IMG/VR virus record: IMGVR_UViG_3300017613_001174
DNA from: a virus
Length of the DNA stretch: 42,133 nt
Reading direction: 5' to 3' (one strand)
Shown here: in pieces, positions 8,190 to 26,325 of the stretch
Layout of the letters: each line of letters starts with the position of its first letter
How positions within the stretch are numbered: the stretch's first letter is position 1
Translations under genes and position numbers: made by a program
The notes under the pieces: model-generated
The model's input: only the letters and a program-made list of their open reading frames with translations
The model's database searches: none
What the model was told of the DNA's origin: nothing

Positions 8190-8233
8190 CCCCAGACCCT
8201 AAACATGGAGGTTGGAATGGTAGCACAAAAAAA

Positions 8234-8260: not shown

Positions 8261-8363
8261 GATTGGTGCGGTGACCATCCAGACCGTTCACCGCTGACAC
8301 CTCCCCCGCATTCTGGGCCAGATGCCGTAAGTTAATGATTAAACATAGTATAACGTGGAATTT

Positions 8364-8552
8364 ATGTCAATAGTAATTTATTTAAATGAAAATTTTTATG
8401 CAACATGCCCTGTATGCCGTTCCCAGGAATGGTTGTTACCGATAAACGGCCCTGGTGACCAATGGAATAGTTTATTAGGGAGTGAATGTGCTAATTGTGG
8501 GTTTTTTATTGAGTGGAAATCAATAAAAAAGGAGGGTGAAGACAGATTTTGA
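8364..8552 (+). CDS. Zinc-ribbon small protein
   Basis: ATG at 8364. CPVC...CANC. Confidence 0.6.
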
Positions 8553-8761
8553 TGAATTTAGATGATTTAAAAAAAGTCTCATGCCCATTTACGGCATATC
8601 AAAAAGGTCAACCTGCTGTTGTTGTCGGGTTCTCACAAAACGACCCCTTAGGCGTTGGCGGTGGGATATTTCCAGACATGCCAACCGTTTATTTTGAAAA
8701 AGGCGGGTGGGTGTTACTGCAAGATTTTTTAAAACATTACGAATTAAAAGATGAACAATGA
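8552..8761 (+). CDS. Hypothetical protein
   Basis: ATG overlapping the upstream TGA. Confidence 0.6.
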
Positions 8762-8877
8762 TGGGAATGGCATCAACTATAATTTTATTTATTGGAATAA
8801 CCGCCCTGGCTCTATCGCTAGGTTACAAGATAGATTGCCTGGAGAAAAAAATTGATAAATTAATAAAGGAAAAATGA
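8758..8877 (+). CDS. 39-aa single-TM peptide (below the ORF-track cutoff)
   Basis: Hand translation gives [39 protein letters not shown]. Overlapping start/stop junctions with both neighbours: ATGATG upstream (ATG 8758, TGA 8759-8761) and ATGA downstream (ATG 8874, TGA 8875-8877). Confidence 0.45.
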
Positions 8878-9191
8878 CAAGTTTTCAAGCAAAAACTTAT
8901 ATGGATTTTGGTAAGTTATATCTTTCGGTAACTCACAACGGTTATCAATGGTCCTCTTTGTATCTTTCTGACCCGAAGGTTGAAATCCCACAAATAATAA
9001 AAGTACTTGAAAAGGCATTGAAAGAAACCTTGAATAACGGACGCAAATGTAAGACAGACGTAGAAAAATTAAGAGCTGAAATCATAAAGGTAACGACTCA
9101 AATAAATTTACACAAAAACAAGATTGCAAGGCTCGAAAAACAAATTAGGAAGATCATGTACGAAAAACCCACGCTCATATCAACCAGATAG
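8874..9191 (+). CDS. Hypothetical protein
   Basis: ORF with an ATGA-coupled start; ends in TAG. Confidence 0.65.
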   Translation: MTSFQAKTYMDFGKLYLSVTHNGYQWSSLYLSDPKVEIPQIIKVLEKALKETLNNGRKCKTDVEKLRAEIIKVTTQINLHKNKIARLEKQIRKIMYEKPTLISTR

Positions 9192-9194
9192 AAT

Positions 9195-9401
9195 ATGAAA
9201 AAGCCAGAAATAACAGAAAAAGAATTTTTTGACTGGGCAAAACATAACTGGATTGAATATGCGGCATGGACTAATTTTTCCGGTTACAGGTTGCGATTCA
9301 AGAGAAACATGACAGGAACGTATCGGGTCTATTTAGGCAAGAATATTTTATACGAAGGGTTAAATTTTAATTCTGCTGCTAAAGCATTTAATGAGGGTTA
9401 A
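9195..9401 (+). CDS. Hypothetical protein
   Basis: ORF immediately after the previous stop. Confidence 0.6.
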   Translation: MKKPEITEKEFFDWAKHNWIEYAAWTNFSGYRLRFKRNMTGTYRVYLGKNILYEGLNFNSAAKAFNEG

Positions 9402-9410
9402 GGAGGCAAA

Positions 9411-9893
9411 ATGGCGTATCTCACAAAAAAAGGCAAAACATTAGAAGGTAAACGTCTCGAAACATTTTTAGCATTTTGGGACGTTTTTAATTACAAATCC
9501 GGAAAAGCCGAAGCTGCCGATTCATGGCTTGCCATTCCGACTCTAACTGATAAAATAGTAGGTGAGATATTACATGCTGCAAGACAAGAGGCGATACGAA
9601 GGCCAGAACTAAAAAAGCGCGGTACAACCCCTAAAATGGCCCAGGGTTGGCTCACATCGAGAAGGTGGGAGGATGAGATGTACCAAACTCAAAGTCCCCG
9701 TAAACGCCAAATAAAACCGTCCAGACTCGATAATTTGAGGAGGGCATATAAGATGTTAACTCAATTGGGAGAAGACGCTTTCCAGTCCTATTGTAAACAG
9801 CTTCGGATGCCACCAGAGGACATTGAAGTGGTTTTACTCAAGGATAAACGTGCGGCAATATTAAAACGCAAAGGTTTTGATGTGGTGGTATGA
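9411..9893 (+). CDS. Conserved phage protein (FW..F.YK.GK...WL..RRWEDE motif), function uncertain
   Basis: RBS aaggagg. From memory, the motif pattern recurs in phage early/replication regions. Confidence 0.65.
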   Translation: MAYLTKKGKTLEGKRLETFLAFWDVFNYKSGKAEAADSWLAIPTLTDKIVGEILHAARQEAIRRPELKKRGTTPKMAQGWLTSRRWEDEMYQTQSPRKRQIKPSRLDNLRRAYKMLTQLGEDAFQSYCKQLRMPPEDIEVVLLKDKRAAILKRKGFDVVV

Positions 9894-10525
9894 AAGGCTA
9901 CACCGTACAACCCATAAAGCGTTCTGATGCTATTCCGTGGATTAAGGTTAAGCATTATGCCAAGCGGATGCCATCCGGTGTTTTATTTTATGGGCTTTTT
10001 AAGGATGATATTATTTGTGGATGTTGCGTCTATAGTATTATTGCAAACTTTGTTGAACAAAAAGCATGGTAGCCTTATGATTTATTAGAATTGGCAAGAT
10101 TGGTAATAGAATGCGATAGAAAAAATATTGGTTCATGGTTTTTATCAAAAACATTTAAAATTATGAATACTCCAATGGTATTGATATCATACGCTGATAT
10201 CGGTCAAAACCATGTTGGTTATATATATCAAGCAACTAATTGGATTTATACGGGGATAGGATCAGTCGGTAGTAAAAATTTTAAATATGCAGATGGATTT
10301 TCAGTCCATGAAAGACATAGCAAAAAAATAAATAATAGAAAAATAAAACCCGTTGATATTGTAAAGTCAAAAGGGAAACATAGATATTATAAATTTTTAG
10401 GGTCGAAGAAATTTAAAAAAGAAATGCTTAAAAAGCTAAGGTTTTCCATCCTGCCCTACCCAAAGGGTGAATCTAAACGATACGACACAAGTGCAACCTT
10501 CGCAAAACAGGTGCAAATGTTTTAG
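9890..10525 (+). pseudogene. Mom-like (GNAT-fold DNA-modification family) gene interrupted by an in-frame TAG at 10070-10072
   Basis: ORFs 9890-10072 and 10091-10525 are in the same frame. The sequence reads through ...FVEQKAW*PYDLLELARL... The ISYADIGQNHVGYIYQATNWIYTG motif is typical of Mom-like proteins as I recall them. Confidence 0.55.
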
Positions 10526-10526
10526 C

Positions 10527-10556
10527 TTGACACGTAATACTGATACGTGCTACATA
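10527..10556 (+). promoter_or_regulatory. Sigma70-type promoter with an extended -10
   Basis: TTGACA (10527-10532), TG at 10548-10549, TACATA (10551-10556). Confidence 0.5.
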
Positions 10557-10567
10557 AGGAATGGTTA

Positions 10568-10735
10568 ATGAAAAAGGACAAATGTAAGAGATGCGGCCAT
10601 GAATGGTATCGTAGAAAGCCTGAAAAACCTATCCTATGCCCAAATCCTAAATGTAGATCAGCCTATTGGGATATTGATAGGAAACACAACGGCACTCACG
10701 ATTTAAATAAGCTACCTCAGATGCGGGGCGTATGA
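10568..10735 (+). CDS. Zinc-ribbon small protein
   Basis: ATG at 10568. CKRCG...CPNPKC. Confidence 0.6.
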   Translation: MKKDKCKRCGHEWYRRKPEKPILCPNPKCRSAYWDIDRKHNGTHDLNKLPQMRGV

Positions 10736-11415
10736 AACCATACTACGAAACAGATTTAGGACGACTTTATCACGGTGACTGTCTTGAAATTATGGGGCAG
10801 CTTGAACCGGTTGATTTGGTTTTAACTGATCCACCTTATGGGGTTTCGTGGCAATCAAATTGGCGGAAGAATAAATTTAATAAAATACATAATGACGAAA
10901 AAGTGCATTATAAATGGCTCAGTTATTTAAAGACAAATGTTTTGTATTCTTTTGCTAAATGGTCAGTGATGCAGGAATGGATTGACCAGGTTTTAGCCGT
11001 TGGTCTATCTGTTAATGATGTTCTTATTTGGGATAAGTTAGCGCATGGCGCTGGAAATTTGAAATCATGGGCACCCACTTATGAGATGATAATTTACGCA
11101 ACCAATGGAAGAGTCGAATTAAACGGGAAACGCCCTCAAAATGTTTTAAGGCATTGGCGAGTTGATGCTGGGGCAACTGGGAAGAGTAGTGGAAAATTGT
11201 TAAAGCATCCAGCACAAAAACCAGAATCATTATTTATTGAAATTATTAAACGACATAGCGGTATTGTTTTAGACCCCTTCATAGGTTCAGGCACAACAGC
11301 AATAGCCTGTGAACGTCTTAACCGAAAGTGGATAGGCATAGAAATCGAAGAAAAGTACTGTGAAATAGCTGCAAAGAGAATTGAATTGGAAAGAAAACAA
11401 AGAAAATTATTTTAA
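10732..11415 (+). CDS. DNA methyltransferase, beta-class (N6-adenine or N4-cytosine; DPPY suggests N6A)
   Basis: LTDPPYG near the N-terminus, HPAQKP, and the C-terminal SAM motif VLDPFIGSGTTAIAC. Confidence 0.9.
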   Translation: MKPYYETDLGRLYHGDCLEIMGQLEPVDLVLTDPPYGVSWQSNWRKNKFNKIHNDEKVHYKWLSYLKTNVLYSFAKWSVMQEWIDQVLAVGLSVNDVLIWDKLAHGAGNLKSWAPTYEMIIYATNGRVELNGKRPQNVLRHWRVDAGATGKSSGKLLKHPAQKPESLFIEIIKRHSGIVLDPFIGSGTTAIACERLNRKWIGIEIEEKYCEIAAKRIELERKQRKLF

Positions 11416-11418
11416 TGC

Positions 11419-11447
11419 TTGACATTTCAAATAAAAAAATGGATAAT
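11419..11447 (+). promoter_or_regulatory. Near-consensus sigma70 promoter
   Basis: TTGACA (11419-11424), 17-nt spacer, GATAAT (11442-11447). Confidence 0.6.
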
Positions 11448-11453
11448 ATTTAC

Positions 11454-11617
11454 ATGATTAAGCATCCGCCAGAAAATATACCAGCAAAAAATATACAAAT
11501 TGGCCCCTGTTTCCTGGCGGATGCACATAAAGCCAATATCTCAGAAAGCCCTTCAGTTCGCTGCGGGGCTTTCGCTTTTTTCAAGCCCATTGGCAGAAAT
11601 GCCTCTGGGCTTTTTTT
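11454..11617 (+). ncRNA. Candidate ~165-nt terminated transcript (sRNA or PR'/6S-like leader)
   Basis: 11-bp perfect stem 11462-11472/11514-11524. 8-bp stem 11544-11551/11566-11573 followed by T6. Hairpin 11584-11589/11606-11611 with an inner ggca/tgcc stem, followed by T7. Confidence 0.4.
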
Positions 11618-12178: not shown

Positions 12179-12700
12179 ATGGAAAAAATGATAAAACATA
12201 GTCAATTAAGAAAAGCAGCAATTAATCGTTTTAAAGAAGAGAATTTCACAATATCAAACAATATTTCCTATCGGGATCTTGCTAGTATTATAAATATAGC
12301 GACTGGCTGGGGTGGTGTTTTAAAGAAGAGCAAAAAACAAGTATATAAAGAGAAAATAAGGCGATTTTATTATGAAACTCCAAGCATTGACAATACTAAG
12401 GTAAATTTTTTAAAGTATCAGCAAGCGAAAATTCCTAAAAAGAAAGAATTTTGTCAAACGGATGATTTTTTAGGTTCGTTTGAGTGGCGTAGGGTGAGGT
12501 TTGAGGCATTAAAGAAAAATAATGGTTGTTGCGAGCTTTGTGGCAGAAATAAGCATGATGATATTAAATTAAATGTTGATCATATCAAACCCAGGAAAAA
12601 ACACCCTGAATTAGCTCTTGATGTGAATAATTTACAGGTTTTGTGTAATGAATGCAATCATGGTAAGGGTAACTGGGATGAAACGGATTGGAGGAAATGA
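12179..12700 (+). CDS. HNH endonuclease (the terminase-associated type seen in cos phages)
   Basis: WRRVRFEALKKNNGCCELCG...VDHIKPRKKHPELALDVNNLQVLCNECNHGKG. Confidence 0.85.
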   Translation: MEKMIKHSQLRKAAINRFKEENFTISNNISYRDLASIINIATGWGGVLKKSKKQVYKEKIRRFYYETPSIDNTKVNFLKYQQAKIPKKKEFCQTDDFLGSFEWRRVRFEALKKNNGCCELCGRNKHDDIKLNVDHIKPRKKHPELALDVNNLQVLCNECNHGKGNWDETDWRK

Positions 12701-13628: not shown

Positions 13629-13907
13629 ATGAAATTAACAAAAACAATCCCAGAGAGAAAGAAAACTGTTAAATTCAAATGGGCGTATCGTGATTCCATG
13701 CAGGCAACAGCGGGTTATTTTAAGGCTCGGAATAGTTTGAGTGGAAAACGCCGGGGAACTATGACAAAATGTGACTGGTGTCAGAAAAAGTTTAAAAAAG
13801 ATGAATGGTTTGCTTTGGCACAACCAGAACAAGGACAAACAGGTCCCACAAGGAATTGGTGTTTGTGCGATGATTGCGCAAAATCTATTGGAGCACCGAG
13901 GAGATGA
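13629..13907 (+). CDS. Zinc-binding small protein
   Basis: RBS gaaggagg. CDWC...CLCDDC. Confidence 0.65.
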   Translation: MKLTKTIPERKKTVKFKWAYRDSMQATAGYFKARNSLSGKRRGTMTKCDWCQKKFKKDEWFALAQPEQGQTGPTRNWCLCDDCAKSIGAPRR

Positions 13908-14374
13908 TAAAAAATAATTTATCAGAATATGAGCATCAGGTCCAGGTGTTCGAATGGGCGAAAATGATGGAAGTTCAAAAGCCAGAGTTAAAACTATTGA
14001 ATGCGTCGCTTATGGGGGTTCATGTTTCACTGAAGTTATTAAATAAATATAAAAAAGCGGGAGTTAAAAAAGGTTATCCTGATTTGTTTTTACCGGTTCC
14101 CAGAGGGGAGCATCACGGGCTATTTATTGAACTAAAAAAAATTGGTGGTAGAAAGCCAAAAGACGAACAAAAACAATGGTTAGAAGATTTACAAGCGCAG
14201 GGTTATGATTGTTACACATGTTTTGGTAGTGAGCAAACTATTTTTGTAATTATATCGTATTTGAATGGCAAGAAGTATGAGCGTTGTCCGGGAAGAGGTG
14301 CAATAGATTTAACTCTAAAAACCTCAGAACTCAAACGCTGGAAACCATCTGACATTAACAGCAAAAAATTCTAA
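13904..14374 (+). CDS. VRR-NUC domain nuclease
   Basis: ATGA-coupled ATG at 13904 after gaggag. EHQVQVFEW...GYPDLFL...GLFIELKK...Q..WL..L (PD-ExK core). Confidence 0.75.
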   Translation: MIKNNLSEYEHQVQVFEWAKMMEVQKPELKLLNASLMGVHVSLKLLNKYKKAGVKKGYPDLFLPVPRGEHHGLFIELKKIGGRKPKDEQKQWLEDLQAQGYDCYTCFGSEQTIFVIISYLNGKKYERCPGRGAIDLTLKTSELKRWKPSDINSKKF

Positions 14375-16833: not shown

Positions 16834-19035
16834 ATGGGTATATTTGATATTTTTAGAAAAGACAGTGGCCAGCCGGATCAGCCAGCGCCGGTTCCCACCG
16901 GAGAGGTCGGCTATTCATTTTCCACTATATACACCAGCGGTGATTTCCCACGGTACAACCCCGATAGCCTTTTGATCAACCGAGGCCGGGCCATATATGA
17001 CAAAATGATGGAGGACGACCAGGTAAAAGCGGTAATGCTGTTCAAGCAGATGGCCGTGGTATCCCGCAAGTATTTTTTCGATGTCAAGGTATCGGATGAT
17101 GGAGTTAAAGATACGGAGCAAGAGAAGATAGCTGATTTTTTCCAGGTAGTTATCAACTGTATTGTGGGGTCATGGTCCGACAAACTGATCGAAATTTTAT
17201 CTGCTATGAAATATGGGTTTTCTGTTTGCGAGAAAATATTTATTCCCGTAAAGTATGATTCCCGCGAGTACTGGGGGCTGCAGGACATAAAGCTTCGCCC
17301 GTTTAATTCGTTTGATGGCGGATTTAAAACAGACAAGCATGGAAATATTACCACAATAGTGCAAATGACCGACGATGCAACCGAAATTAAAATACCGCCG
17401 AACAAGGTGATTCACTTTGTATATCAGCCGGATATAGATAGGCATTATGGCGAGAGTGATCTTCGGACCGCATACCGGCCGTATTGGTCTAAAGATGTGG
17501 CAATTAAGTTTGAGAATATCCACCTGGAACGTCATGCTCACGGTTTTATATGGGCACAGACTGACCCGGCCAAGGGCGCTTTAACCAGTAAGCAGATATC
17601 AGACCTTGAATCCGTACTAGACAATATTACGGCAAAAACATCCTTGCATGTTCCGGCATCCGTTGAAATCAACACGATCCAACCGCTACGGACAGACGCC
17701 TATAATCTCGCAATCCAGCGGCATGATAAGGCTATCGCAAAATCCTTACTGGTTCCCAACCTACTCGGCCTATCAGAGCAAGGCTCCACCGGGAGCTATG
17801 CGCAAAGCTCAACACAGTTAGAAGCGTTTTTTTGGATACTGGACTTTATGGCCAATCGTTTGGCCGAGGCATTAAACGAGCAGTTATTTCGAGACCTTTC
17901 GATATGGAACTTCGGGACAGAAGATTTTCCACAGTTTAAATTTGAGCCGATCTCAGACTCCAAAAAGCTTGAAATCATCAAACAGTGGAACGAGATGGTC
18001 AAGGGCCACTCGGTTACGAAATCAGATTCGGACGAGGCGTATGTACGTCAGATTATGGACTTTCCCAAAAAAGAGGAGCAGGGCGAATTGCCCGACGATT
18101 CTGATCATCTTCCGGTCGAGCAACCAGATGAAGTTGAACTCAGCGATTGGCTTTCCGGGAAGGACCGGCAGTTAATAAAAGAATTTGCAGAAAGCCCATG
18201 GATGCGCCGGGTAAATTTTGTGAAGATCGAAAAAGGTTTAAATGCTCAGGATATGGAATTTTCCAGGGAACTATCTATGGTCATGGGCCAGGTGCGCCTA
18301 TCACTTGAAAAACAAATAGTGAGTGTTGGTGGCACCCGGAGCTGGGGAAACGTAAACCCCAAAGAAGTCGGGAGCATAAAAATCCCGGCGACTCTCGTGT
18401 CAAAGATCAGAAAGGTGATCCGCACGAATACCGAGGCGTCATTGAATAGCAATTACGAAACGGCGAGGCGCGAGCTACCAGTTAAAAAGTTTGCAAAGAT
18501 AAACCCTGGGATGACAAAAGACAAAGCCATGCAGTATCTATCATCTGCCGCAATGCGAGGGGCACAAACGCTTGATCACGATGTGATAGACGCTATCCGT
18601 ATCGTTTTGCAGAATGCGATTAAATACGACAAGAGCCTACGAGACACCATCGCCTCACTTAATGACAATACGACCTTGGCAACCACATTACCGCAAATAG
18701 ATGCTGCCGGTCGCGCGGTGAATATACCAGCAAGGCTTGAGACCATAGCACGCACTAATACCGCTGATGCTATGAATCAGGCCAGAACGAGTCTATTTAA
18801 TAATCCAGAGCTGAAGGGGTTTGTCCAAGCGTTTGAATATGCAGCGATTCTGGATGATAGGATAACTGATATATGCGAGCATTTAAACGGGAAAAAACTT
18901 AGGGACTTTGCCAACTACACCCCGCCAAATCATTTTAATTGTAGGTCGATATTAATTGCGATAACAAAGGTCGATGATTGGAACGGGAAAGAGTCGGCGC
19001 CACCTTCACAACGGCCACAAAAAGGTTTTTATTGA
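16834..19035 (+). CDS. Portal protein (Mu gp29/DUF935-like) fused to a Mu F / SPP1 gp7-like head morphogenesis domain
   Basis: Portal-like N-terminal ~430 aa. C-terminal RTNTADAMNQAR...DDRITDICEHLNGK...PPNHFNCRS is a MuF signature. Confidence 0.8.
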   Translation: MGIFDIFRKDSGQPDQPAPVPTGEVGYSFSTIYTSGDFPRYNPDSLLINRGRAIYDKMMEDDQVKAVMLFKQMAVVSRKYFFDVKVSDDGVKDTEQEKIADFFQVVINCIVGSWSDKLIEILSAMKYGFSVCEKIFIPVKYDSREYWGLQDIKLRPFNSFDGGFKTDKHGNITTIVQMTDDATEIKIPPNKVIHFVYQPDIDRHYGESDLRTAYRPYWSKDVAIKFENIHLERHAHGFIWAQTDPAKGALTSKQISDLESVLDNITAKTSLHVPASVEINTIQPLRTDAYNLAIQRHDKAIAKSLLVPNLLGLSEQGSTGSYAQSSTQLEAFFWILDFMANRLAEALNEQLFRDLSIWNFGTEDFPQFKFEPISDSKKLEIIKQWNEMVKGHSVTKSDSDEAYVRQIMDFPKKEEQGELPDDSDHLPVEQPDEVELSDWLSGKDRQLIKEFAESPWMRRVNFVKIEKGLNAQDMEFSRELSMVMGQVRLSLEKQIVSVGGTRSWGNVNPKEVGSIKIPATLVSKIRKVIRTNTEASLNSNYETARRELPVKKFAKINPGMTKDKAMQYLSSAAMRGAQTLDHDVIDAIRIVLQNAIKYDKSLRDTIASLNDNTTLATTLPQIDAAGRAVNIPARLETIARTNTADAMNQARTSLFNNPELKGFVQAFEYAAILDDRITDICEHLNGKKLRDFANYTPPNHFNCRSILIAITKVDDWNGKESAPPSQRPQKGFY

Positions 19036-19041: not shown

Positions 19042-19752
19042 GTGGTAAAATTAAATACTATAACAACGATTGAACTTTCATCTGCTTGTAATTTAAAATG
19101 CAGTTATTGTGTGAACAGGCTCATTGGTGTAAATTCAGATAGAGTACCAGGAATAATGAGCGATTCGGTGTTTAGTGCATCGGTAAAGCTTTTGAAGAGG
19201 TTGGTTGATAGAGGAACCCAAAAAGAAATCAGTTTAAACGGGAACGGCGAGAGCTTTTTAGACACATCACTCATAGAACGTGTTAAAACAGTAAGGAAGA
19301 TTCTCGGAGATAACAACTTATTGTTAATGTCAACAAATTCTACGCTTGTGACTAAAGAGATTGCTATTTCGTTGAAAGATGCGGGTTTGGATGAGATTCA
19401 TACGTCGATACATAAACCGGAAGCGGTTAGAAAGGCGTTGCCGATATTTTCTGATGCAGGGTTGAAAACCGTTATCAATGCAGGGGTTATTATATTTTCT
19501 CATAACTGGGCAGGGCAACTTGAAGATGAAAACAAAGTGCCCAAGGAAAGGTTGCCGGACATTCAATGCGACCCGCTTATTGACGGTAGAGGGTACGTGT
19601 CGGCAGAGGGGAACATAAGCCCATGTTGTTATGACTATCGGAATATAGGAGTATTTGGGACTGTATTTAATAAAGATATACTGGATAAAGAATACGGCGC
19701 ATATGAGTTGTGTCGTGGATGCCATCAGGTAATACCACCGGAATTATTATGA
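19042..19752 (+). CDS. Radical SAM enzyme with a SPASM/twitch-like C-terminal Cys motif (paralog 1)
   Basis: CNLKCSYC (19087-19110), NGNGESFLD, C-x13-G-x4-C (CDPLIDGRGYVSAEGNISPC) and CRGC. GTG start. Confidence 0.8.
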   Translation: MVKLNTITTIELSSACNLKCSYCVNRLIGVNSDRVPGIMSDSVFSASVKLLKRLVDRGTQKEISLNGNGESFLDTSLIERVKTVRKILGDNNLLLMSTNSTLVTKEIAISLKDAGLDEIHTSIHKPEAVRKALPIFSDAGLKTVINAGVIIFSHNWAGQLEDENKVPKERLPDIQCDPLIDGRGYVSAEGNISPCCYDYRNIGVFGTVFNKDILDKEYGAYELCRGCHQVIPPELL

Positions 19753-20486
19753 AAATTATTGAGACAATCAACACCATTGAGCTTTCGTCGGTCTGTGACA
19801 ATAAGTGCCAGTATTGCCCGGCGCGATTGCAGTCCGAGCATAGACTTACTGGCTTTATGTCATGGGCGACATTTAAGCACGCTATTGATAAAGCCTTAGT
19901 CTTTGCGCGAGCCGGAACACAGCGGGAAATCAACCTGTTCGGGGTAGGTGAGCCAACGCTGCATAAATATATAGTGGCTATGGTACGCTATGCCAGGGAG
20001 CATTTACCGTTTAATCAGGTTTTGCACCTGAATACCAATGGCAACACCATGACGATGCAACTCGCCAAGGACCTAAAGGACGCCGGCATCACGTCGATTG
20101 ACATAACGGGCCACGATCATGCTGTAACTGCAAAAACAATTAAAATATTCCGAGAATTAGAAATAGTTGGAAATTTGTCATATGATTTTGTCACTGCTCC
20201 GAACAACTGGGCGGGTCAAGTGGATTGGTTTGAACCTGACACCCGGCTACCAGTATATCGTAATAATCCCTGTCCGTGGCTGGAACGTGGCCAGGTTATG
20301 GTGATGAGTGACGGCCTTATCACGACTTGCTGCATCGATGCCTTTGGGCGAAACGTTATTTGCGACATATCAGACAACCTTGAAAATTTTGAGGTTGCAG
20401 AAAGTGAGCTATGTAAAAGCTGTCATCACAAAATCCCGGAAACATCATCAAAATTTGAGCAGACCTTAGACTTGATGGCGGTGTAA
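19749..20486 (+). CDS. Radical SAM enzyme with a SPASM/twitch-like C-terminal Cys motif (paralog 2)
   Basis: ATGA-coupled ATG at 19749. CDNKCQYC (19794-19817), FGVGEPTLH, C-x13-G-x4-C (CPWLERGQVMVMSDGLITTC) and CKSC. Shares TIELSS, GTQ.EI and NWAGQ with paralog 1. Confidence 0.8.
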   Translation: MKIIETINTIELSSVCDNKCQYCPARLQSEHRLTGFMSWATFKHAIDKALVFARAGTQREINLFGVGEPTLHKYIVAMVRYAREHLPFNQVLHLNTNGNTMTMQLAKDLKDAGITSIDITGHDHAVTAKTIKIFRELEIVGNLSYDFVTAPNNWAGQVDWFEPDTRLPVYRNNPCPWLERGQVMVMSDGLITTCCIDAFGRNVICDISDNLENFEVAESELCKSCHHKIPETSSKFEQTLDLMAV

Positions 20487-20507: not shown

Positions 20508-21752
20508 ATGCCATATGATAGCAATGAAAAATTACCGGATACCGTAAAAGTTCTTCCAGATGCTGCACAAACGATCTGGCGCAATGCGTTTAACTCGGCC
20601 AATAAGTCTGGCAAAGATGACGAGTCTTCCTCCAAGATCGGATGGGGTGCCGTAAAGAACGCTGGCTGGTCAAAGGGTCAAGATGGCAACTGGGCCAAGT
20701 CGCAGAGTGACACCGGCCACGAATTCGATGTTGAGGTGATGTCGGTCGGAACCTGGAACGGTGACAAGTTCACAACCGAACATCTACAAAACCTTGCCCA
20801 CAACTTCGATGCGTTGAAGGATACGGTTAAGCCATTTTTAAAGCTCGGCCATAACCAGAAACAGGAAGATGGTAAACCCTCCATGGGCTGGGTTAAGGCG
20901 CTGAAGGTATCAGGTGACAAACTTATTGCAACATTAACACAAGTGCCTGAAGTTGTTTATAAAGCGATCAAGGGTGGGCGATATAAACGCCTATCAGCAG
21001 AGATATATTTCAATATGCGCGACAAGGCCGGTAATATCCGCAAGCGTGTATTACGAGCGGTCGCACTCCTCGGCGCCGATGTTCCCGCAGTCGATAACCT
21101 GGCAGATATAGACGCCTACTTAACTCAATCCATTCTGAATGAACAGTTTGACAAGGTAATGGCGTATACCTGGCAAATGAATAATTTTGATAAAAAAGAA
21201 CTAACTATCAACGGAATTGTAAACCAGACAAGAGGTGATACCATGGCTGATGATGAAAAGAGGGATAAAGAAATAAAAGAGTTTAAGGACCGCCTTGAAC
21301 TCGCTGAAAAAGAAAAGGCGGACGCCCAAAAACTGGCGGATGATAACGCCACCAAGCTGAAGGAATTCGAGGAAAATAAAGCCGCCGAAGAAAAAGCATC
21401 CAATGAGAAGGAATTTAAGGCTTTCTGTGAGGCGGCCGTGAAAGGCGGAAAGCTTACGCCGGCATCCAGGGACGAGCTCGTCAAGGGTTTCGTCTATGAT
21501 GCAAAGCAGGGGTATCTGTGTCCGTTCAGCGTGTTTAAAAAATACGTGGAAGACACAAAAATCATCCTTGATATGCGCGAGTATGGGCACGATACCGACA
21601 ACACAAATTATGGGGATGGTGCCACGGTCCAAAAGATCGTCGATACCAAAGCCACGGAATACGCAGCAAAGCATAAGGTTGATTACAGTACCGCAATGCT
21701 CGCTGTTCTGAACGATAACCCGAAACTTGCAAACGCTTACGTCAAAGAATAG
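20508..21752 (+). CDS. ChaB-like N-terminal domain fused to a Mu gpI-like prohead protease/scaffold
   Basis: MPY..KLPDTVKVLPDAAQTIWRNAFNSA...GWGAVK...GNWAK matches the ChaB pattern. GKPSMGWVKALKV...GRYKRLSAEIYF is Mu I-like. The C-terminal half has a charged coiled coil. Confidence 0.75.
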   Translation: MPYDSNEKLPDTVKVLPDAAQTIWRNAFNSANKSGKDDESSSKIGWGAVKNAGWSKGQDGNWAKSQSDTGHEFDVEVMSVGTWNGDKFTTEHLQNLAHNFDALKDTVKPFLKLGHNQKQEDGKPSMGWVKALKVSGDKLIATLTQVPEVVYKAIKGGRYKRLSAEIYFNMRDKAGNIRKRVLRAVALLGADVPAVDNLADIDAYLTQSILNEQFDKVMAYTWQMNNFDKKELTINGIVNQTRGDTMADDEKRDKEIKEFKDRLELAEKEKADAQKLADDNATKLKEFEENKAAEEKASNEKEFKAFCEAAVKGGKLTPASRDELVKGFVYDAKQGYLCPFSVFKKYVEDTKIILDMREYGHDTDNTNYGDGATVQKIVDTKATEYAAKHKVDYSTAMLAVLNDNPKLANAYVKE

Positions 21753-21784: not shown

Positions 21785-22159
21785 ATGGCAACTGAAAATA
21801 AAAATTGGTTCCTGACCTTTGAAGCGGCAGAGGATCTTTCATCGTTGGAGTACCAGATTGTTACGATTGCTGACGACAAGATTGCCAATGATGGCCAGGA
21901 AGCCACTGGGGTACTGGTATCTAAACCGAAATCAGGTGAACATGGATCGATCATGTTTATGGGGATCGGAAAGGCCAGGGCCGGTGGAGCAATCGCAAAA
22001 AATGGTGTGTTTAAGACCGTCACATCCGGGTATATCTCGGCGGCAACTTCTGGTGGCTGGGTAAATGGTCGCGCACTTGAGGCAATCACGTCAGGGAGTA
22101 TCGGTAAAATTTTCTGGCATGGCGTAAACCAGTATCAGGTTAGTTCGATTGATGGATAA
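21785..22159 (+). CDS. Head decoration-like protein (DUF2190-type)
   Basis: Small Gly-rich beta protein between the protease and capsid genes. RBS aggagg. Confidence 0.55.
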   Translation: MATENKNWFLTFEAAEDLSSLEYQIVTIADDKIANDGQEATGVLVSKPKSGEHGSIMFMGIGKARAGGAIAKNGVFKTVTSGYISAATSGGWVNGRALEAITSGSIGKIFWHGVNQYQVSSIDG

Positions 22160-22175: not shown

Positions 22176-23138
22176 ATGGGAGCACGAGGACACGATTTAC
22201 ATATTGACCAGCCACTGAGCAACGTGGCAATGAGCTACAGGCCGGAGGGCATGATCGCTGATATTGTAGCGCCGGAGGTTCCGGTGCAAAAGCAATCAGA
22301 TTCATATACGATATGGTCACAAGCCGATGCCCTGCGGACTGAGGACGATAAACGAGCCCCGGGAACCGAGGCTAACCTGATCACTCGTGGTGTATCAAGT
22401 GATACGTATTTCGCCAATAACTTTGCGCTGAAATCCGCATTGACATTGGAGGACCGCGAGAATATGGACGCCGCTTTCATCCAACAGTTGCGAAACGGCA
22501 AAGTTGAATACATCAAAGATAAGCTGACCCTTAACTGGGAAAAACGTCTTGCGGACAAGGTGACGAGTGGCTCAAATGTTGGCAGCTATTCAACAATAGA
22601 TTCTGACTGGCAAGATTATACCACGGGCCAATCAGATCCTATCGGAGATATGCAAACGGCGATTACCAATGTTCAGGATGCCACCGGGTATCGTCCCAAC
22701 CGTTGCCTCATGGGTGGCCTTGCTTGGCGTCATTTCCGAAGGCATGAAGACGTTATCGATCTTTTGTATGGGTCCTCTGGCCAGGGCAAAGTCCGTTATG
22801 CCTCACGCGAACAGGCAAAGGAAATCTTCGAGGTGGATCAACTTATCATTGGTGAAACATACTACAACAGCGGCGCTGAAGGTCAAAGCCTAGCATTGCA
22901 ACATATGTGGTTAGATTATGTCTTGGTCTATTATGCACCTTCACGGCCCTCTCGGGAAACGCCCAGTTTCATGTATTCATTTCGTTGGAAAAAACCCGCT
23001 ATCCCAAATATGGCGGCAGAGGTTCATCCGTTCGACCGCAAGACAAAATCAGAGGAGGTCGAGCTTGGCTATTACCAGGACGAAAAAATCACTGGCGCTA
23101 ACCTGGGGTTTCTTTTAACTCATGTAACCAGCGTTTAA
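22176..23138 (+). CDS. Major capsid protein
   Basis: Size, position after the protease and decoration genes, strong RBS, and a strong hairpin downstream. Confidence 0.8.
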   Translation: MGARGHDLHIDQPLSNVAMSYRPEGMIADIVAPEVPVQKQSDSYTIWSQADALRTEDDKRAPGTEANLITRGVSSDTYFANNFALKSALTLEDRENMDAAFIQQLRNGKVEYIKDKLTLNWEKRLADKVTSGSNVGSYSTIDSDWQDYTTGQSDPIGDMQTAITNVQDATGYRPNRCLMGGLAWRHFRRHEDVIDLLYGSSGQGKVRYASREQAKEIFEVDQLIIGETYYNSGAEGQSLALQHMWLDYVLVYYAPSRPSRETPSFMYSFRWKKPAIPNMAAEVHPFDRKTKSEEVELGYYQDEKITGANLGFLLTHVTSV

Positions 23139-23220: not shown

Positions 23221-23382
23221 ATGCTGCGCGATGATGCGATAAAAAAGGGCTTGATAAAGCCAAAGGATAAAGAAGAGGCCGACCGATTCGGGATGGATTT
23301 TCAGCCGGTCAACATACCGAAATCCGAAAGACCAAACGTGTCGACGACTCCAAAGTATCGGCATAAAAAGAAATCAAGATAA
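23221..23382 (+). CDS. 53-aa basic peptide (below the ORF-track cutoff)
   Basis: ATG 7 nt after caggag. Hand translation gives MLRDDAIKKGLIKPKDKEEADRFGMDFQPVNIPKSERPNVSTTPKYRHKKKSR. Confidence 0.35.
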   Translation: MLRDDAIKKGLIKPKDKEEADRFGMDFQPVNIPKSERPNVSTTPKYRHKKKSR

Positions 23383-23406: not shown

Positions 23407-26325
23407 ATGAGAATAATATTTCATGTTGGTGGCATGCCTTTTAACGGCTCCACTATTTCGGATGGAAAGAGCCTCGGCGGGTCAGAAAGCGCCGGGTATT
23501 ATATGGCGAGGGAGATGGCCAGGTTAGGCCATGAAGTTGTAATTTTTACCTCGTCACCTGACACCGGTTTTTCAGATGGCGTGTTTTTTGAATGGATGGG
23601 GGAACGCTCGGAGCAATACCCGCTCGGCCACAGGTTCGACGTTTCCAGCAAGGTTCCCGCAGATGTAACTATCATCCAACGTATACCGTTTGCGTTCCGC
23701 AAGCCGATCAACTCAAAATTAAATATATGGTGGGTACATGATATCGGTTTGATGCGTCACTCCATGATCGTGCAGCAACAACTCGTTAATATCGATCAGA
23801 TATTTACCGTTTCAGAATTTCATAAAAACCAATTCGCAAAAGTGTTCGATATTCCAAAGCATATCATTACCGCAACATTCAACGGGGTTGATTATACGTA
23901 TCCTGAAGAACTGGAAGCGCAAAATTTACCACGGGTACCAAAGTCGCTGGTTTTTGCATCGAGACCTGAGCGAGGACTTGAAAACCTTGTGGGCCGCAAC
24001 GGAATAATGAAAAGCCTGCCTGATTGTCACCTGTATGTATGTGGGTATGACAATACCGTTCCCCAGATGAGGGACTATTACCGGTATTTATATAACAGGT
24101 GCGACCAACTGGACAATGTGACAAACCTTGGCAGCCTCGGTAAAAATGAATTATATAAGTTACTTGCAAAGTCGGAGTTGTGTGTATACCCAACCACCTT
24201 TGAAGACACCAGCAACATGATGTTGCTTGAATCCAATGCGGTCGGTACGCCGTTTATTGGGCCAAAGGATCGCGCAGCACTTCCGCAAACCGGCCATAAC
24301 GCCGGTGTGAAATTTGTGCCATTAAAAGACGGGAAAATCCACAAACAGGCATTTGTGAAATGTATAAAAGAATGTCTCGAAGCATCCACCTGGGATAGGC
24401 TCCACATTAAAGCGCTCGGCAAAGAACAGACATGGAAAGCGGCTGCTATGCAATGGGATCAGGTATTCAACGACCTGTTATATTATAAATGCAATGATAA
24501 AAGGCGTTTATACAAACACCTGGAACATCATAGCGATATCATTGCCATAGGTGAGGACCACCCGGCACCGGACATGCAACTTCTGGAAAGTGTTCTTCCC
24601 GGGTTCAGAAAAAACTACGAGTTTTTGTATAATAACGATTTCAAGGGCCACTATGATCGCTATTATGAGTATGAGGAAAGCAGGGGCGTAAAATATGGCC
24701 CTGAAGATCTAACCGGGCAGCCCAGGTTTGAGCACACGGCACGGCTGATTGATGAAATGGGTCCAGGTGCAATACTTGATTACGGATGTGCCCACGGACA
24801 TTATGTTATGAACCTTATGAACCGGTATCCGCATATACGTTTTTTCGGGGCTGATATAAACGCGAAAAACATAGAGATTGCGAGGCGTTGGGCACTTGAT
24901 GTCATTGGCGACAAGTCCGAGCAGGATCAGGCGCTGGACACGGTTAATAATTTGTTTTTTCAGTCAACAGCAGATGATGATTTTGACCTTGCTTGCAATG
25001 TGGACGTTATCTTGCTTCAGGAAATTTTGGAGCATGTTCCCAATCCGGGAACTTTGGTTGAACAGTTAAGTACGCACCTGGCACCGGAAGGGCATTTTTT
25101 AATATCGGTCCCGTATGGTCCATGGGAGGCCCTGGGGTATAAAAAACACCCTGGATGGAGAGCGCATATCCATCATATCGAACGTGAGGACCTTTATGAA
25201 CTATTTAGGGCACAGGAAGACTTTAAACTGATCGCGTTGCCACACAGAGACAATATGGGCCACTATATTGTCACGTTTAAGTATAACCCTGATATACCTA
25301 TCGGCAAAATCGATTATGTCCGCAAATTAAAACAACAGGCACCACGTGAAACATTATCAGTTTGCATGATCGCAAAAAATGAGCAGCACACTATTGGAAG
25401 GACCATTGAGTCGATAATAGATATTGCGGATGAAATAATTATAGGCCTGGATGAAACTACAACAGATGAAACCTACGCAGTGGCCATGCAGTTTGTTGGC
25501 CCTGAAAATATCATCCCGATTAAATCACCGATGGAAACCGGGTTCGCCGTGGCAAGGCAGGTAACTATCGATGCCGCTTCTATGGATTGGATATTGTGGA
25601 TTGACTGCGACGAAACTTTCGAGCAAGCTGAGAACCTACCGAAATACTTACGCAATAACTGTATGGATGGATATGGAATCAAGCAACACCACTATGCAGT
25701 TGAGCCTGCGGAGTTGTTTAAAACAGATTACCCCTGCCGGTTATTCCGCAATAATAAGGGCATGAAATTTTTTGGCTTTGTCCACGAGCACCCGGAAAAA
25801 GAAATGAACAAGGGCCCTGGTAAAACTCATCTTATCGATGACGTGGCTATTATGCATACCGGATATCCGACCGAGCAGGTGCGGCGGAAACGGTTTGAGC
25901 GCAATTTCCCGTTGATACAAAAAGATCGGGAGCTTAATCCCGATAGAAATCTTGGAAAATTCCTGTGGGTACGAGACCTCGCCCACTTCGCCCGGTACAG
26001 CATGGAGCAAAACGGCGGGGTTGTAACCCCACGGATTGAAGATGCAGCTGCCCAGGGAATTGAGATGTGGCGTGAACTTTTAAAGACTGGCGACCTTCGG
26101 CTGATCACGCAAAGTATCCCGTTTTATTCCGAATGTGTTTATCGATTAATGAACGGCAACGGCATTGATTTCACCCTGGCGATCACTTCGGGTAAGGGTG
26201 GCAATCGTTTTGTATTGCCGGACCGAAAGATCGAGGGTTTGTTTGCCAGCATCGAGGACATTAAAAAGCTAAATAAAGTTATCGTTGACAAGTCTGTCGA
26301 GCATTACGAAAATAAATATTATTAA
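23407..26325 (+). CDS. Tri-domain glycosyltransferase (GT4-like) - SAM methyltransferase - glycosyltransferase (GT2-like) fusion, 972 aa
   Basis: GGSESAGYYMAREMARLGHEV and FEDTSNMMLLESNAVGTPFIG (GT-B/GT4). ILDYGCAHG...EILEHVPNP (class I MTase, from about aa 456). LSVCMIAKNE...IIGLDETTTDET...WIDCDE (GT2, from about aa 650). Confidence 0.85.
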   Translation: MRIIFHVGGMPFNGSTISDGKSLGGSESAGYYMAREMARLGHEVVIFTSSPDTGFSDGVFFEWMGERSEQYPLGHRFDVSSKVPADVTIIQRIPFAFRKPINSKLNIWWVHDIGLMRHSMIVQQQLVNIDQIFTVSEFHKNQFAKVFDIPKHIITATFNGVDYTYPEELEAQNLPRVPKSLVFASRPERGLENLVGRNGIMKSLPDCHLYVCGYDNTVPQMRDYYRYLYNRCDQLDNVTNLGSLGKNELYKLLAKSELCVYPTTFEDTSNMMLLESNAVGTPFIGPKDRAALPQTGHNAGVKFVPLKDGKIHKQAFVKCIKECLEASTWDRLHIKALGKEQTWKAAAMQWDQVFNDLLYYKCNDKRRLYKHLEHHSDIIAIGEDHPAPDMQLLESVLPGFRKNYEFLYNNDFKGHYDRYYEYEESRGVKYGPEDLTGQPRFEHTARLIDEMGPGAILDYGCAHGHYVMNLMNRYPHIRFFGADINAKNIEIARRWALDVIGDKSEQDQALDTVNNLFFQSTADDDFDLACNVDVILLQEILEHVPNPGTLVEQLSTHLAPEGHFLISVPYGPWEALGYKKHPGWRAHIHHIEREDLYELFRAQEDFKLIALPHRDNMGHYIVTFKYNPDIPIGKIDYVRKLKQQAPRETLSVCMIAKNEQHTIGRTIESIIDIADEIIIGLDETTTDETYAVAMQFVGPENIIPIKSPMETGFAVARQVTIDAASMDWILWIDCDETFEQAENLPKYLRNNCMDGYGIKQHHYAVEPAELFKTDYPCRLFRNNKGMKFFGFVHEHPEKEMNKGPGKTHLIDDVAIMHTGYPTEQVRRKRFERNFPLIQKDRELNPDRNLGKFLWVRDLAHFARYSMEQNGGVVTPRIEDAAAQGIEMWRELLKTGDLRLITQSIPFYSECVYRLMNGNGIDFTLAITSGKGGNRFVLPDRKIEGLFASIEDIKKLNKVIVDKSVEHYENKYY

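Follow-up and report, generated by a model that had tools for sequence, protein, structure and literature searches.

BtrN-like Twitch radical-SAM enzymes in the head operon of an uncultured phage and their genomic linkage to a GT4-methyltransferase-GT2 protein

Known radical-SAM and glycosylation systems

To our knowledge, very few radical-SAM (rSAM) enzymes act on carbohydrates. BtrN, the 2-deoxy-scyllo-inosamine dehydrogenase of butirosin biosynthesis, is the sole small Twitch dehydrogenase that we know to have been characterised structurally. Enzymes of the anSME/AtsB type are likewise rSAM dehydrogenases; their auxiliary clusters are fully ligated, and they work post-translationally and without oxygen, features they share with the reading proposed below. 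However, they are longer (~370 aa) and contain the seven-cysteine SPASM motif with two auxiliary clusters. Among glycosyltransferases (GTs), GmaR is a flagellin O-GlcNAc transferase, and SunS and ThuS are peptide S/O-glycosyltransferases; GmaR and SunS contain helical or TPR-like substrate-binding domains after their GT2 domain. As far as we know, phage virion glycosylation has been proven experimentally only in mycobacteriophages, where it alters immune recognition, and we are aware neither of an rSAM component of that system nor of a description, for any phage, of oxygen-independent tailoring of the virion sugar coat by rSAM enzymes.

According to the passages that refer to it, phage-encoded GTs modify virion structural proteins of mycobacteriophages (Freeman et al. 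2023, as cited in PMC12582341, PMC12691614, PMC11256854). In the eukaryotic giant virus PBCV-1, the GT-GT-methyltransferase protein A064R builds the glycan of the major capsid protein (PMC9614988). On the side of the rSAM enzymes, the SPASM domain is defined by CX9-15GX4C-gap-CX2CX5CX3C-gap-C and two auxiliary clusters, whereas the Twitch domain is a truncated SPASM with a single auxiliary cluster, for which one cysteine is located before a β-hairpin, one after it, and two past the next helix (PMC6231123).

Organization of the locus

The window, meaning the whole analysed stretch of 42,133 nucleotides from IMG/VR virus record IMGVR_UViG_3300017613_001174, contains two rSAM genes, A and B, between a portal and a prohead protease gene. 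The features are as follows.

16834..19035, plus strand: Mu-type portal fused to a MuF domain (Portal_Mu 4e-45, Phage_Mu_F 4.5e-11)
19042..19752, plus strand: rSAM A, GTG start, 236 aa, clade A paralogue, BtrN-like Twitch radical-SAM enzyme
19087..19110, plus strand: CX3CX2C motif of A, CNLKCSYC (direct reading)
19567..19725, plus strand: predicted Twitch auxiliary-cluster region of A
19749..20486, plus strand: rSAM B, ATG start, 245 aa, clade B paralogue, BtrN-like Twitch radical-SAM enzyme
19794..19817, plus strand: CX3CX2C motif of B, CDNKCQYC (direct reading)
20205..20222, plus strand: NNWAGQ loop of B (N152-Q157), family signature
20271..20426, plus strand: predicted Twitch auxiliary-cluster region of B
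20508..21752, plus strand: ChaB domain and Mu-like prohead protease/scaffold (ChaB 2.6e-9, Mu-like_Pro 1e-6, phrog_976 7e-41)
21785..22159, plus strand: small head protein, scaffold/decoration-like (phrog_673, E 1.8e-8)
22176..23138, plus strand: major capsid protein, MCP (phrog_1005 major head protein 1e-61; Phage_cap_E)
23407..26325, plus strand: GT4-class I methyltransferase-GT2 protein, 972 aa (Pfam domains), with approximate domain boundaries GT4 23476-24486, methyltransferase 24742-25212, and GT2 25345-26001

The ATG of B (19749-19751) overlaps the TGA of A (19750-19752) in the sequence ATGA, and the two proteins align over their full length with 34% identity (BLASTP, E 2e-36). The portal gene ends 6 nt before A, and the ChaB-protease/scaffold gene begins 21 nt after B. 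Hence, the coupling at position 19749, the paralogy, and the tight packing between portal and protease, all of which had been proposed in a sequence-only reading of the window, are confirmed. The small head protein occurs in 1-3 copies in relatives. A scan for promoters and terminators around the rSAM genes returned none above shuffled expectation, and a search of the window for nucleotide-sugar biosynthesis genes found none, which speaks against the sugar-tailoring role proposed below. Genes for Mom and a DNA methylase are present in the window as well.

Radical-SAM core and Twitch domain

A and B are genuine rSAM enzymes with a C-terminal auxiliary-cluster domain. Their scores against the Pfam family Radical_SAM (PF04055), 41.0 bits for A and 40.6 bits for B, are both above the gathering score of 29.5. 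In each protein, the CX3CX2C motif is formed by C16, C20, and C23, and it is invariant in 51 homologues of A and in 53 sequences of the B family. The GGE-type motif reads NGNGES in A and FGVGEP in B, and its residues G67/G69/E70 and G65/G67/E68, respectively, are invariant in the family alignments. Thus, the N-terminal motifs picked out by eye in the earlier reading prove to be family-wide. No RRE or peptide-binding domain is found at the N terminus, where the cluster motif already begins at residue 16.

The C-terminal region of A follows the pattern C176-x13-G190-x4-C195 C196 ... C224-x2-C227-H228, and that of B the pattern C175-x13-G189-x4-C194 C195 ... C222-x2-C225-H226, in agreement with the C-x13-G-x4-C and CxxC arrangement already described for both ORFs. 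In the alignment of the A family, C16/C20/C23, G67/G69/E70, C176, C195/C196, and C224/C227/H228 are all invariant, and the five C-terminal cysteines are invariant in ~50 homologues of A and of B each. Since ~190-210 homologues of each protein keep all motif residues, the pattern is not due to chance. In the AF2 model of B, C175 is located before a hairpin (E182-185/E190-192), C194 after it, and C222/C225 at the helix 221-224. This layout is repeated in A, by alignment and by its model, where the β-hairpin (E183-186/E191-193) lies between the first two Twitch cysteines. In both proteins, an extra invariant cysteine directly follows the second auxiliary ligand, herein called the CC motif.

Judged by alignment and models, A and B are Twitch enzymes, each with one predicted auxiliary cluster. 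Both proteins contain CX13GX4C(C) and CX2C only, and the CX5CX3C part of the seven-cysteine motif is absent; the Pfam SPASM model (PF13186) scores A with 15.9 bits, below the cut-off of 21.5, gives no match to B, and is present as a precomputed match in a few homologues. SPASM membership is thus ruled out by both motif and Pfam score, and of the earlier SPASM/twitch assignment only the Twitch half stands. An identity as anSME was rejected as well: the model NF010321, whose cut-off is 441 bits, reaches only 18.7, through the N terminus alone, and the SPASM motif is missing. In a profile search of the PDB, the family likewise matches anSME over the N-terminal ~100 residues only (E 7e-5).

Enzymes of the kinds usually met in phages (QueE, NrdG activase, viperin-like or MoaA-like), placed in the head operon by chance, are effectively refuted as an explanation, as the earlier reading had anticipated: the weak NCBIfam and PADLOC matches to MoaA and viperin/pVip models cover the generic N-terminal ~110 residues only (residues 12-110 for pVip) and score far below the curated cut-offs (MoaA 39 vs 284 bits; viperin NF038283 at most 32 vs 180 bits), QueE and NrdG give no match, tblastn against 50,697 GenBank phage records finds no homologue, and the full-length family is limited to ~130 clusters of 190-280-aa proteins. 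An identity as a defence system was also discarded, as the matches were again generic and N-terminal.

Structural similarity to BtrN

The best match of the B-family profile in the PDB is BtrN (E 1e-13, profile positions 5-207 of 236, the Twitch region included). The AF2 models (pLDDT 94.1 for A and 93.5 for B) lead to the same protein. For A, Foldseek ranks BtrN (4m7t) first with an E-value of 1.3e-13 and a TM score of 0.69, the second-best match being at 2e-7; for B, BtrN is again first (E 7e-14, 245 of 246 columns), followed at 1e-5. TM scores to BtrN range from 0.64 to 0.69 across both models, and all top fold matches of both are rSAM enzymes. The fold match to anSME is weaker than that to BtrN by ~9 orders of magnitude. 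The comparison with these two folds, which the sequence-only reading had suggested together with a likeness to the ~250-aa BtrN, is hence decided in favour of BtrN.

BtrN (PDB 4M7S/4M7T) shares with A and B a length of ~250 aa, a CX3CX2C motif at residue 16 without N-terminal extension, and a Twitch domain with one cysteine before the β-hairpin, one after it, and a C-terminal CX2C. The positions T-N-G, H, and C-x-x-D are common in the alignment. In the HMMER alignment of B with BtrN, C194 corresponds to the cysteine at chain position 188 and D197 to D191, and C175 is one column off the cysteine at BtrN position 169.

The differences are equally clear. Identity is only 20-22%, BtrN lacks the extra invariant cysteine after the second auxiliary ligand, and A and B form a paralogue pair. 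BtrN residues 150-154 (S-N-R-G-G) align with the NNWAGQ loop of B, in which W154, A155, G156, and Q157 are invariant, and the position of R152 is taken by the invariant Trp; NRGG is retained in the remote cellular relatives P0384 and P0387. R152 is said to have been proposed as the catalytic base of BtrN by Goldman et al. in 2013. Because Trp is invariant at this position, the chemistry may differ from that of BtrN. BtrN is, in addition, part of an aminoglycoside cluster with an aminotransferase, whereas A and B are encoded by a phage with a capsid-linked GT nearby. An assignment as BtrN orthologues was therefore rejected: the S-N-R-G-G loop is not kept, and every context examined is that of a phage genome with the GT4-MT-GT2 gene, with no aminoglycoside or aminocyclitol context.

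The glycosyltransferase partner and gene linkage

The 972-aa partner protein combines GT4, methyltransferase (MT), and GT2 domains. With a family profile, the GT2 domain matches GmaR (1.5e-28), SunS (2e-22), and ThuS (1.7e-19) in the PDB, and no other strong relatives are found. These enzymes hence relate to the GT2 domain of the partner and not to the rSAMs. Unlike in GmaR, SunS, and ThuS, the GT2 domain of the window is part of a fusion with GT4 and methyltransferase domains, and its gene lies beside a phage capsid gene. PBCV-1 A064R resembles the partner in being virus-encoded and in having three domains, two GTs and one SAM methyltransferase, but it comes from a eukaryotic giant virus, uses other GT families in another order on an N-glycan, and has no rSAM partner. 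The mycobacteriophage GTs are separate proteins, unlike the fusion found here.

Linkage was surveyed in ~150 related metagenomic phage loci. The GT4-MT-GT2 gene is present in at least 309 IMG/VR loci. Among the 68 IMG/VR loci found via rSAM B, every contig that is long enough contains a ~975-aa GT4-MT-GT2 gene. Where flanks of 7 kb or more are available on each side of the rSAM gene, 14 of 15 loci also carry it; in the fifteenth (L060), a permuted GT2-TPR-MT-GT4 protein of 1119 aa directly follows the rSAM gene, with the TPR repeats located after the GT2 domain. In Mu-like-head loci with both genes, the window included, the MCP comes first and the GT next, and throughout the ~150 Mu-like-head loci, the GT is a co-oriented member of the late structural operon, with the MCP on one side and the connector genes on the other. 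Divergent phages place the rSAM gene either between MCP and GT (L039, L040, L047, L052, L106, L125, L139) or directly after the GT (L035, L054, L055, L057, L065, L121, L133, L142, L143). Because the rSAM gene stands beside the GT in these phages, the portal-protease slot is lineage-specific, so that the position which the earlier reading had treated as the key feature is not conserved; co-occurrence with the GT is conserved instead.

In L041-L045, rSAM and GT occur together on a different backbone, after gp32-like, exonuclease, RecA, and SbcCD-like genes; the pair has moved jointly into an unrelated backbone. One metagenomic protein, P0341, joins a family-specific GT4 C terminus to a family rSAM (hhalign probability 96.7%, E 4e-10), a single sequence that could be an artefact of assembly or gene calling. 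Conversely, among unique loci that cover the stretch from portal to GT, 22 have the GT without an rSAM, as do about half of the GT-bearing phages. Genes interleaved with the rSAM in relatives encode an FkbM methyltransferase (16 loci), a class I methyltransferase (9), and a sulfotransferase (7). Together with the rSAM-free half of the GT phages, these interleaved genes lead us to read the rSAMs as optional glycan-tailoring enzymes. The accessory ORFs of the module further include a polysaccharide-deacetylase domain, and one phage module (L007) contains an SDR downstream of the GT gene. As a single Mu-like-head clade accounts for most of the phages with the GT, the co-occurrence is partly phylogenetic.

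Proposed role and alternatives

Since A and B resemble BtrN and travel with a GT by the capsid gene, tailoring of a sugar coat is the most likely explanation. The observed enzyme class, fold, and genomic coupling lead us to propose, with middling confidence, that the two enzymes carry out a BtrN-like, oxygen-independent oxidation or epimerisation of a sugar in a phage virion-glycosylation system. A phage-encoded GT is indeed located in the structural-gene module, as in such a system. Because the GT accompanies the rSAM genes and abuts them in divergent phages, comparative genomics favours, of the two substrates offered by the earlier reading, a sugar linked to the GT over a virion protein modified directly. 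Substrate, reaction, and virion target are proposed with the caution that, in the subfamily of SkfB, function is not predictable from similarity (PMC6231123).

The core of the system would be the 972-aa protein, with A and B as optional tailoring enzymes. Its GmaR/SunS-like GT2 domain may transfer a sugar onto a virion protein, with the MCP and the small head protein as candidate targets, the GT4 domain would lengthen the glycan, and the methyltransferase domain would cap it. Each rSAM is predicted to bind two [4Fe-4S] clusters, a SAM-cleaving one at CX3CX2C and a fully Cys-ligated auxiliary one. The 5'-deoxyadenosyl radical would abstract a hydrogen from a carbon of the sugar, either in a nucleotide-activated donor or in the attached glycan. 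The substrate radical could then be oxidised via the auxiliary cluster to a keto-sugar, as in dehydrogenation of the BtrN type; if instead the extra cysteine of the CC motif quenched it on the opposite face, the outcome would be epimerisation. A and B may differ in the position or sugar that they act on, or form a heterodimer. Such oxygen-free chemistry would imply a reducing, anoxic host cytoplasm.

Alternatively, though we consider it unlikely, the substrate of the rSAMs could itself be a protein of the virion or procapsid, namely the MCP, the scaffold/protease, the portal, or the small head protein, with the GT as an independent neighbour. Possible reactions would be Ser/Cys oxidation as in anSME, epimerisation as in EpeE or PoyD, or a cross-link. 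The position of the rSAM genes between portal-MuF and prohead protease in the window and its close relatives fits this alternative; what is conserved, however, is adjacency to, or co-occurrence with, the GT, and not this position. The protein or peptide modifiers SkfB, anSME, EpeE, and PqqE, all with Twitch or SPASM domains, do appear among the weaker fold matches; BtrN, however, precedes every protein-modifying rSAM by 6-9 orders of E-value and matches over the full length. The extra cysteine of the CC motif could donate a hydrogen atom as in peptide epimerases, yet an N-terminal RRE or peptide-binding domain is lacking, and the interleaved methyltransferase and sulfotransferase genes are typical of glycan tailoring. 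Among the MCPs, no alignment column is specific to rSAM-containing phages (30 vs 22 sequences), a weak comparison given its phylogenetic confounding.

Still less probable is that the rSAM genes and the GT-MT-GT cassette modify a surface glycan or glycoprotein of the host, such as flagellin, the S-layer, or LPS, to exclude superinfection, or glycosylate phage DNA instead of the virion. A non-virion target is possible because the L041-L045 cassette adjoins DNA-metabolism genes and no head module, and GmaR, the closest solved relative of the GT2 domain, glycosylates host flagellin. DNA-hypermodifying phage GTs do exist (bioRxiv 10.1101/2023.12.21.572611). The Mom and DNA methylase genes of the window would fit a DNA target too. 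However, the GT lies co-oriented inside the late structural operon in ~150 Mu-like-head loci, and GmaR, SunS, and ThuS are protein or peptide GTs and not DNA GTs. No 5mYOX/TET or hydroxymethylase partner was seen, and the DNA-glycosylation paper does not mention rSAM enzymes (bioRxiv 10.1101/2023.12.21.572611).

A RiPP pathway was considered separately, in which the small ORF at 23221-23382 after the MCP gene would encode a glycocin-like precursor for a SunS-like GT and an rSAM. This ORF is conserved (MLRDDAI..GLIKP). Since it is free of cysteines, basic, and of variable length, and the rSAMs are without an RRE domain, the idea was judged unlikely.

Implications

If sugar tailoring on the virion is correct, rSAM enzymes, with oxygen-independent C-H chemistry on virus surfaces, would be added to the tailoring repertoire, and a much larger environmental phage clade would have a compact and different glycosylation machine. 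More tentatively, and in our view doubtful at this breadth, a large uncultured phage clade from anoxic habitats may build its capsid glycan with a single GT4-methyltransferase-GT2 protein and, in about half of its members, rewrite it with dedicated rSAMs. This broader picture would include the first rSAM chemistry dedicated to a virus particle. Its products could be keto- or epimerised sugars, the former perhaps even linking capsid lysines to one another, and the enzymes would form a new, sugar-acting branch of BtrN-type Twitch enzymes. With ~130 sequence clusters and a defined genomic partner, the family offers a tractable way into new sugar chemistry.

Distribution and annotation

Metagenomic homologues number 213 for A and 189 for B, at 50-69% identity. 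Paired loci always combine one member from each of two clades, either A and B or U1 and U2, so that the pairs are non-redundant. Neither megablast of the 15-24 kb region nor tblastn of A and B gave a match among the GenBank phages (50,697 records), and no sequence similarity to them, the mycobacteriophage system included, was detected for the enzymes; the GT-MT-GT protein gave weak partial matches only. No cultured relative or other experimental handle was found. A scan of 185,579 species genomes for a cellular context returned two MAG contigs only, both phage-like. The chemistry makes an anaerobic host, as put forward in the earlier reading, plausible, and three MAG labels, Thermodesulfobacteriota / Deltaproteobacteria, are the sole support for it. 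A search for literature on this phage rSAM family found none.

Family members are labelled in databases as 'hypothetical', 'AslB', or 'MoaA/NifB/PqqE'. These genes risk being taken for generic auxiliary metabolic genes, and one copy in the window was called without its active site: the GTG start of A at 19042 is backed by homologues, whereas the public JGI call (P0121) is a truncated one of 198 aa that misses the cluster motif.

Organization of the radical-SAM gene pair

The two radical-SAM (rSAM) genes of the window, rSAM A and rSAM B, are embedded in the head operon, which is organized as follows:

16834–19035: portal-MuF fusion of the Mu type, 6 nt upstream of A
19042–19752, + strand: rSAM A, 236 aa, GTG start
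19749–20486, + strand: rSAM B, 245 aa, ATG start
20508–21752, + strand: Mu-like prohead protease/scaffold with a ChaB domain, starting 21 nt after B
Between the protease/scaffold and MCP genes: small head protein
22176–23138: major capsid protein (MCP), after the small head protein gene
23407–26325: GT4-methyltransferase-GT2 protein (GT-MT-GT), 972 aa, after the MCP gene

The pair thus lies where the sequence-only reading had placed it, between portal-MuF and prohead protease with gaps of 6 and 21 nt. A and B are co-oriented, and the ATG of B overlaps the TGA of A. Besides CX3CX2C at residues 16 to 23, each protein contains a GGE-type motif and, at its C terminus, CX13GX4C with CX2C after it. 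A and B share 34% identity across their full length (E 2e-36), and both pass the Pfam Radical_SAM cut-off of 29.5 bits (A, 41.0 bits; B, 40.6 bits). Hence, the coupled paralogs recognized in that reading are confirmed in coordinates, ATGA overlap, and motifs. For each ORF, ~190 to 210 homologs of 220 to 260 aa were found at 50 to 69% identity, metagenomic without exception, and all motif residues are invariant among them. Comparison with these homologs supports translation of A from the GTG at 19042. The public JGI call for A (P0121, 198 aa, no Pfam match) begins at M39 and therefore lacks CX3CX2C. In the metagenomic family member P0256, a LAGLIDADG-type intein of ~380 aa sits exactly at the third Cys of CX3CX2C (CNLRCAY[C...HN]C). 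The G+C content of rSAM A (39.8%) is lower than that of rSAM B and the neighboring head genes (45–49%).

In a neighbor-joining approximation rooted on BtrN—the radical-SAM dehydrogenase of butirosin biosynthesis—the family forms four clades, A, B, U1, and U2. Two-copy loci always hold one member each of two clades, either A and B or U1 and U2, and single-copy loci hold B, U2, or U1. Because the clade pairing is fixed and every catalytic and cluster residue is kept in both paralogs, the sequences point to two nonredundant activities or a heteromer; a decaying duplicate is argued against.

Enzyme class

SPASM domains have a seven-Cys motif and two auxiliary clusters, and Twitch domains are the truncated form with one cluster (PMC6231123). 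The C-terminal cysteines of A and B number only five—in B C175, C194, C195, C222, and C225, followed by H226—and the Pfam SPASM model yields 15.9 bits for A, below the threshold of 21.5, and no match for B. SPASM membership was rejected on both grounds. MoaA, viperin/pVip, and other named rSAM models were also rejected, as they match the generic N terminus only and stay far below their curated cut-offs.

Among PDB sequences, the B-family profile matches BtrN best (E 1e-13, profile positions 5–207 of 236), the next matches (CteB, NifB, anSME, and MoaA) being confined to the N-terminal core. The AlphaFold models (pLDDT 93.5 for B and 94.1 for A) likewise retrieve BtrN first in Foldseek, with 7e-14 over 245/246 columns for B and 1.3e-13 at a TM of 0.69 for A; the runners-up, including SkfB, viperins, MoaA, PqqE, anSME, and EpeE, are weaker by 6 to 9 orders of magnitude. 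In the HMMER alignment, C194 of B coincides with the Cys at BtrN chain position 188 and D197 with D191, and C175 is one column off the Cys at position 169. In BtrN, the auxiliary cluster is ligated by C169, C188, C232, and C235. The phage family signature NNWAGQ aligns with the S-N-R-G-G loop of BtrN, herein an invariant Trp replacing R152. In the remote cellular relatives P0384 and P0387, NRGG is retained and the Pfam SPASM cut-off is passed. The phage proteins would therefore work in the manner of BtrN-type Twitch enzymes, yet are not BtrN orthologs. Very probably, A and B are BtrN-like Twitch rSAM enzymes and new members of the Twitch class; of the SPASM/Twitch assignment made initially, the Twitch part holds and the SPASM part does not.

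Partnership with the glycosyltransferase

The window proteins were mapped onto 68 IMG/VR loci fetched via rSAM B and 80 fetched via GT-MT-GT, a family carried by at least 309 IMG/VR loci. Tabulating the neighbors of the NWAGQ family, as had been suggested, identified GT-MT-GT as the constant partner in these loci. Close relatives carry, in this order, portal-MuF, rSAM A, optional inserts, rSAM B, the protease gene, the small head protein gene in one to three copies, MCP, GT-MT-GT, and the connector genes. The rSAM gene(s) lie between MCP and GT in the divergent phages L039, L040, L047, L052, L106, L125, and L139, and directly after GT in L035, L054, L055, L057, L065, L121, L133, L142, and L143. 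L041–L045, contigs of up to 90 kb with a different backbone, carry an rSAM–small ORF–GT cassette after gp32-like, 5'-3' exonuclease, RecA, and SbcCD-like genes. Fifteen rSAM loci extend 7 kb or more to both sides; 14 of these include GT-MT-GT, and the fifteenth (L060) encodes a permuted 1119-aa GT2-TPR-MT-GT4 protein (8101–11460) immediately after the rSAM gene. No rSAM gene is present in 22 unique loci spanning portal to GT; rSAM genes occur in roughly 40 to 45% of the GT-ascertained loci, as counted from the mapping. Because rSAM never occurs without GT, whereas GT occurs without rSAM, the conserved feature is the rSAM–GT partnership, with GT as the core and the rSAMs as accessories. In the metagenomic protein P0341, an rSAM of the family is joined to C-terminal sequence of the family-specific GT4 domain (hhalign probability 96.7%, E 4e-10)—possibly a fusion, although an artefact is conceivable for a single sequence. 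Functional coupling of the rSAMs to GT is likely.

The only strong PDB relatives of the GT2 domain are GmaR (1.5e-28), SunS (2e-22), and ThuS/7msk (1.7e-19). GmaR is a flagellin O-GlcNAc transferase, and SunS and ThuS are peptide S/O-glycosyltransferases, so these enzymes use proteins or peptides directly as acceptors. The GT4 domain is similar to the retaining GT4 enzymes GlgM, MshA, and PimB, and a class I SAM methyltransferase domain lies between GT4 and GT2. Genes interleaved with the rSAMs in relatives encode FkbM-type methyltransferases (16 loci), class I methyltransferases (9), and sulfotransferases (7); an SDR gene follows GT in one phage (L007), and polysaccharide-deacetylase, CBM6/35, and ConA-like lectin domains occur in accessory ORFs of the module. 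Such functions are typical of glycan tailoring and glycan binding.

Proposed function and alternatives

Beyond enzyme class and gene linkage, the mechanism is one that we infer. GT-MT-GT would glycosylate a virion protein, for which the MCP, the product of the gene just upstream, and the small head protein are candidates; three serines (S75, S143, and S264) are conserved in 90% or more of the MCPs. The rSAMs would abstract hydrogen from a carbon of a sugar that either belongs to the nucleotide-sugar donor or is already attached as glycan. The resulting substrate radical may be oxidized through the auxiliary cluster, which is fully ligated, giving a keto-sugar in the manner of BtrN; alternatively, the extra Cys of the CC motif may quench it, giving an epimer. 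That the rSAMs act on a sugar within a virion glycan system is, as a whole, about evenly balanced.

It is unlikely that the rSAMs modify a virion or procapsid protein directly. They do adjoin portal and protease in the lineage of the window, and protein-modifying Twitch or SPASM enzymes exist; however, this position is not conserved, the full-length BtrN match is much stronger, A and B have no RRE domain, and no MCP alignment column is specific to rSAM-bearing phages. Of the two substrates considered initially, the sugar of the nearby glycosyltransferase is therefore favored over a virion protein. Less probable still is a target of rSAM and GT-MT-GT outside the virion, such as host glycan or DNA. 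The cassette context in L041–L045 and the action of GmaR on host flagellin would fit it, but in about 150 loci GT is part of the late operon, with MCP on one side and connector genes on the other, TET or hydroxymethylase partners are absent, and a DNA-glycosylation paper (bioRxiv 10.1101/2023.12.21.572611) does not mention radical SAM. Ordinary phage genes of the QueE, NrdG, or viperin type are effectively excluded by the family searches.

A radical-SAM-tailored, capsid-adjacent glycosylation module would be a new form of phage virion glycosylation; no radical-SAM enzyme is known to take part in glycosylation by PBCV-1 A064R or in that of mycobacteriophages. These two are precedents for capsid glycosylation encoded by viruses: A064R is a GT-GT-MTase protein (PMC9614988), and for mycobacteriophages Freeman et al. 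2023 is cited in PMC12582341, PMC12691614, and PMC11256854.

Distribution of the family

Neither DNA search nor tblastn found an A/B homolog in 50,697 GenBank phage records, and full-text literature searches returned no description of the rSAM family or of its arrangement with GT-MT-GT. Among 185,579 species genomes, only two loci were found, both on phage-like contigs binned into "Deltaproteobacteria" MAGs, and one NCBI family member is labeled Thermodesulfobacteriota. An exhaustive HMM search of 1.84 billion representatives gave 100 clusters at E ≤ 1e-30 and ~130 full-length clusters (~190–280 aa) before matches degrade to generic rSAM cores.

Further features of the phage genome

Positions 1–121 recur exactly at 42013–42133 as a direct terminal repeat of 121 bp. 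The 42,133-bp contig is probably a complete phage genome of ~42.0 kb, circularly assembled or terminally redundant. The protease/scaffold (20508–21752, +) carries an N-terminal ChaB domain (PF06150) as a fusion; some relatives are devoid of it, their protease match beginning at ~residue 70. The small head gene, scaffold/decoration-like, ranges in number from one to three, arranged in tandem, among relatives (L009, L024–27, L037, L079, L090, and others). The small ORF that separates the MCP gene from the glycosyltransferase gene (23221–23382, +) has a conserved N terminus, MLRDDAI..GLIKP, and a variable basic tail, which in some relatives is replaced by a SAP/Rho-N-like C terminus. A Mom-family protein (10091–10525, +; PF25680, 6.7e-16) adjoins an N6/N4 DNA methylase (10732–11415, +; PF01555, 1.9e-29), which suggests that the phage DNA is modified. 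An HNH endonuclease (12179–12700, +) and a VRR-NUC nuclease (13874–14374, +) are located just upstream of the terminase genes. The ORF at 3646–4260 (−) matches the N-terminal domain of Maf flagellin glycosyltransferases weakly and below threshold (PF20157, E 5e-4, 20 versus 23.5 bits). Two consecutive right-handed β-helix proteins (38804–40291 and 40383–42116, +; Beta_helix, DUF5123, NosD-like) are probably polysaccharide-depolymerase tailspikes.
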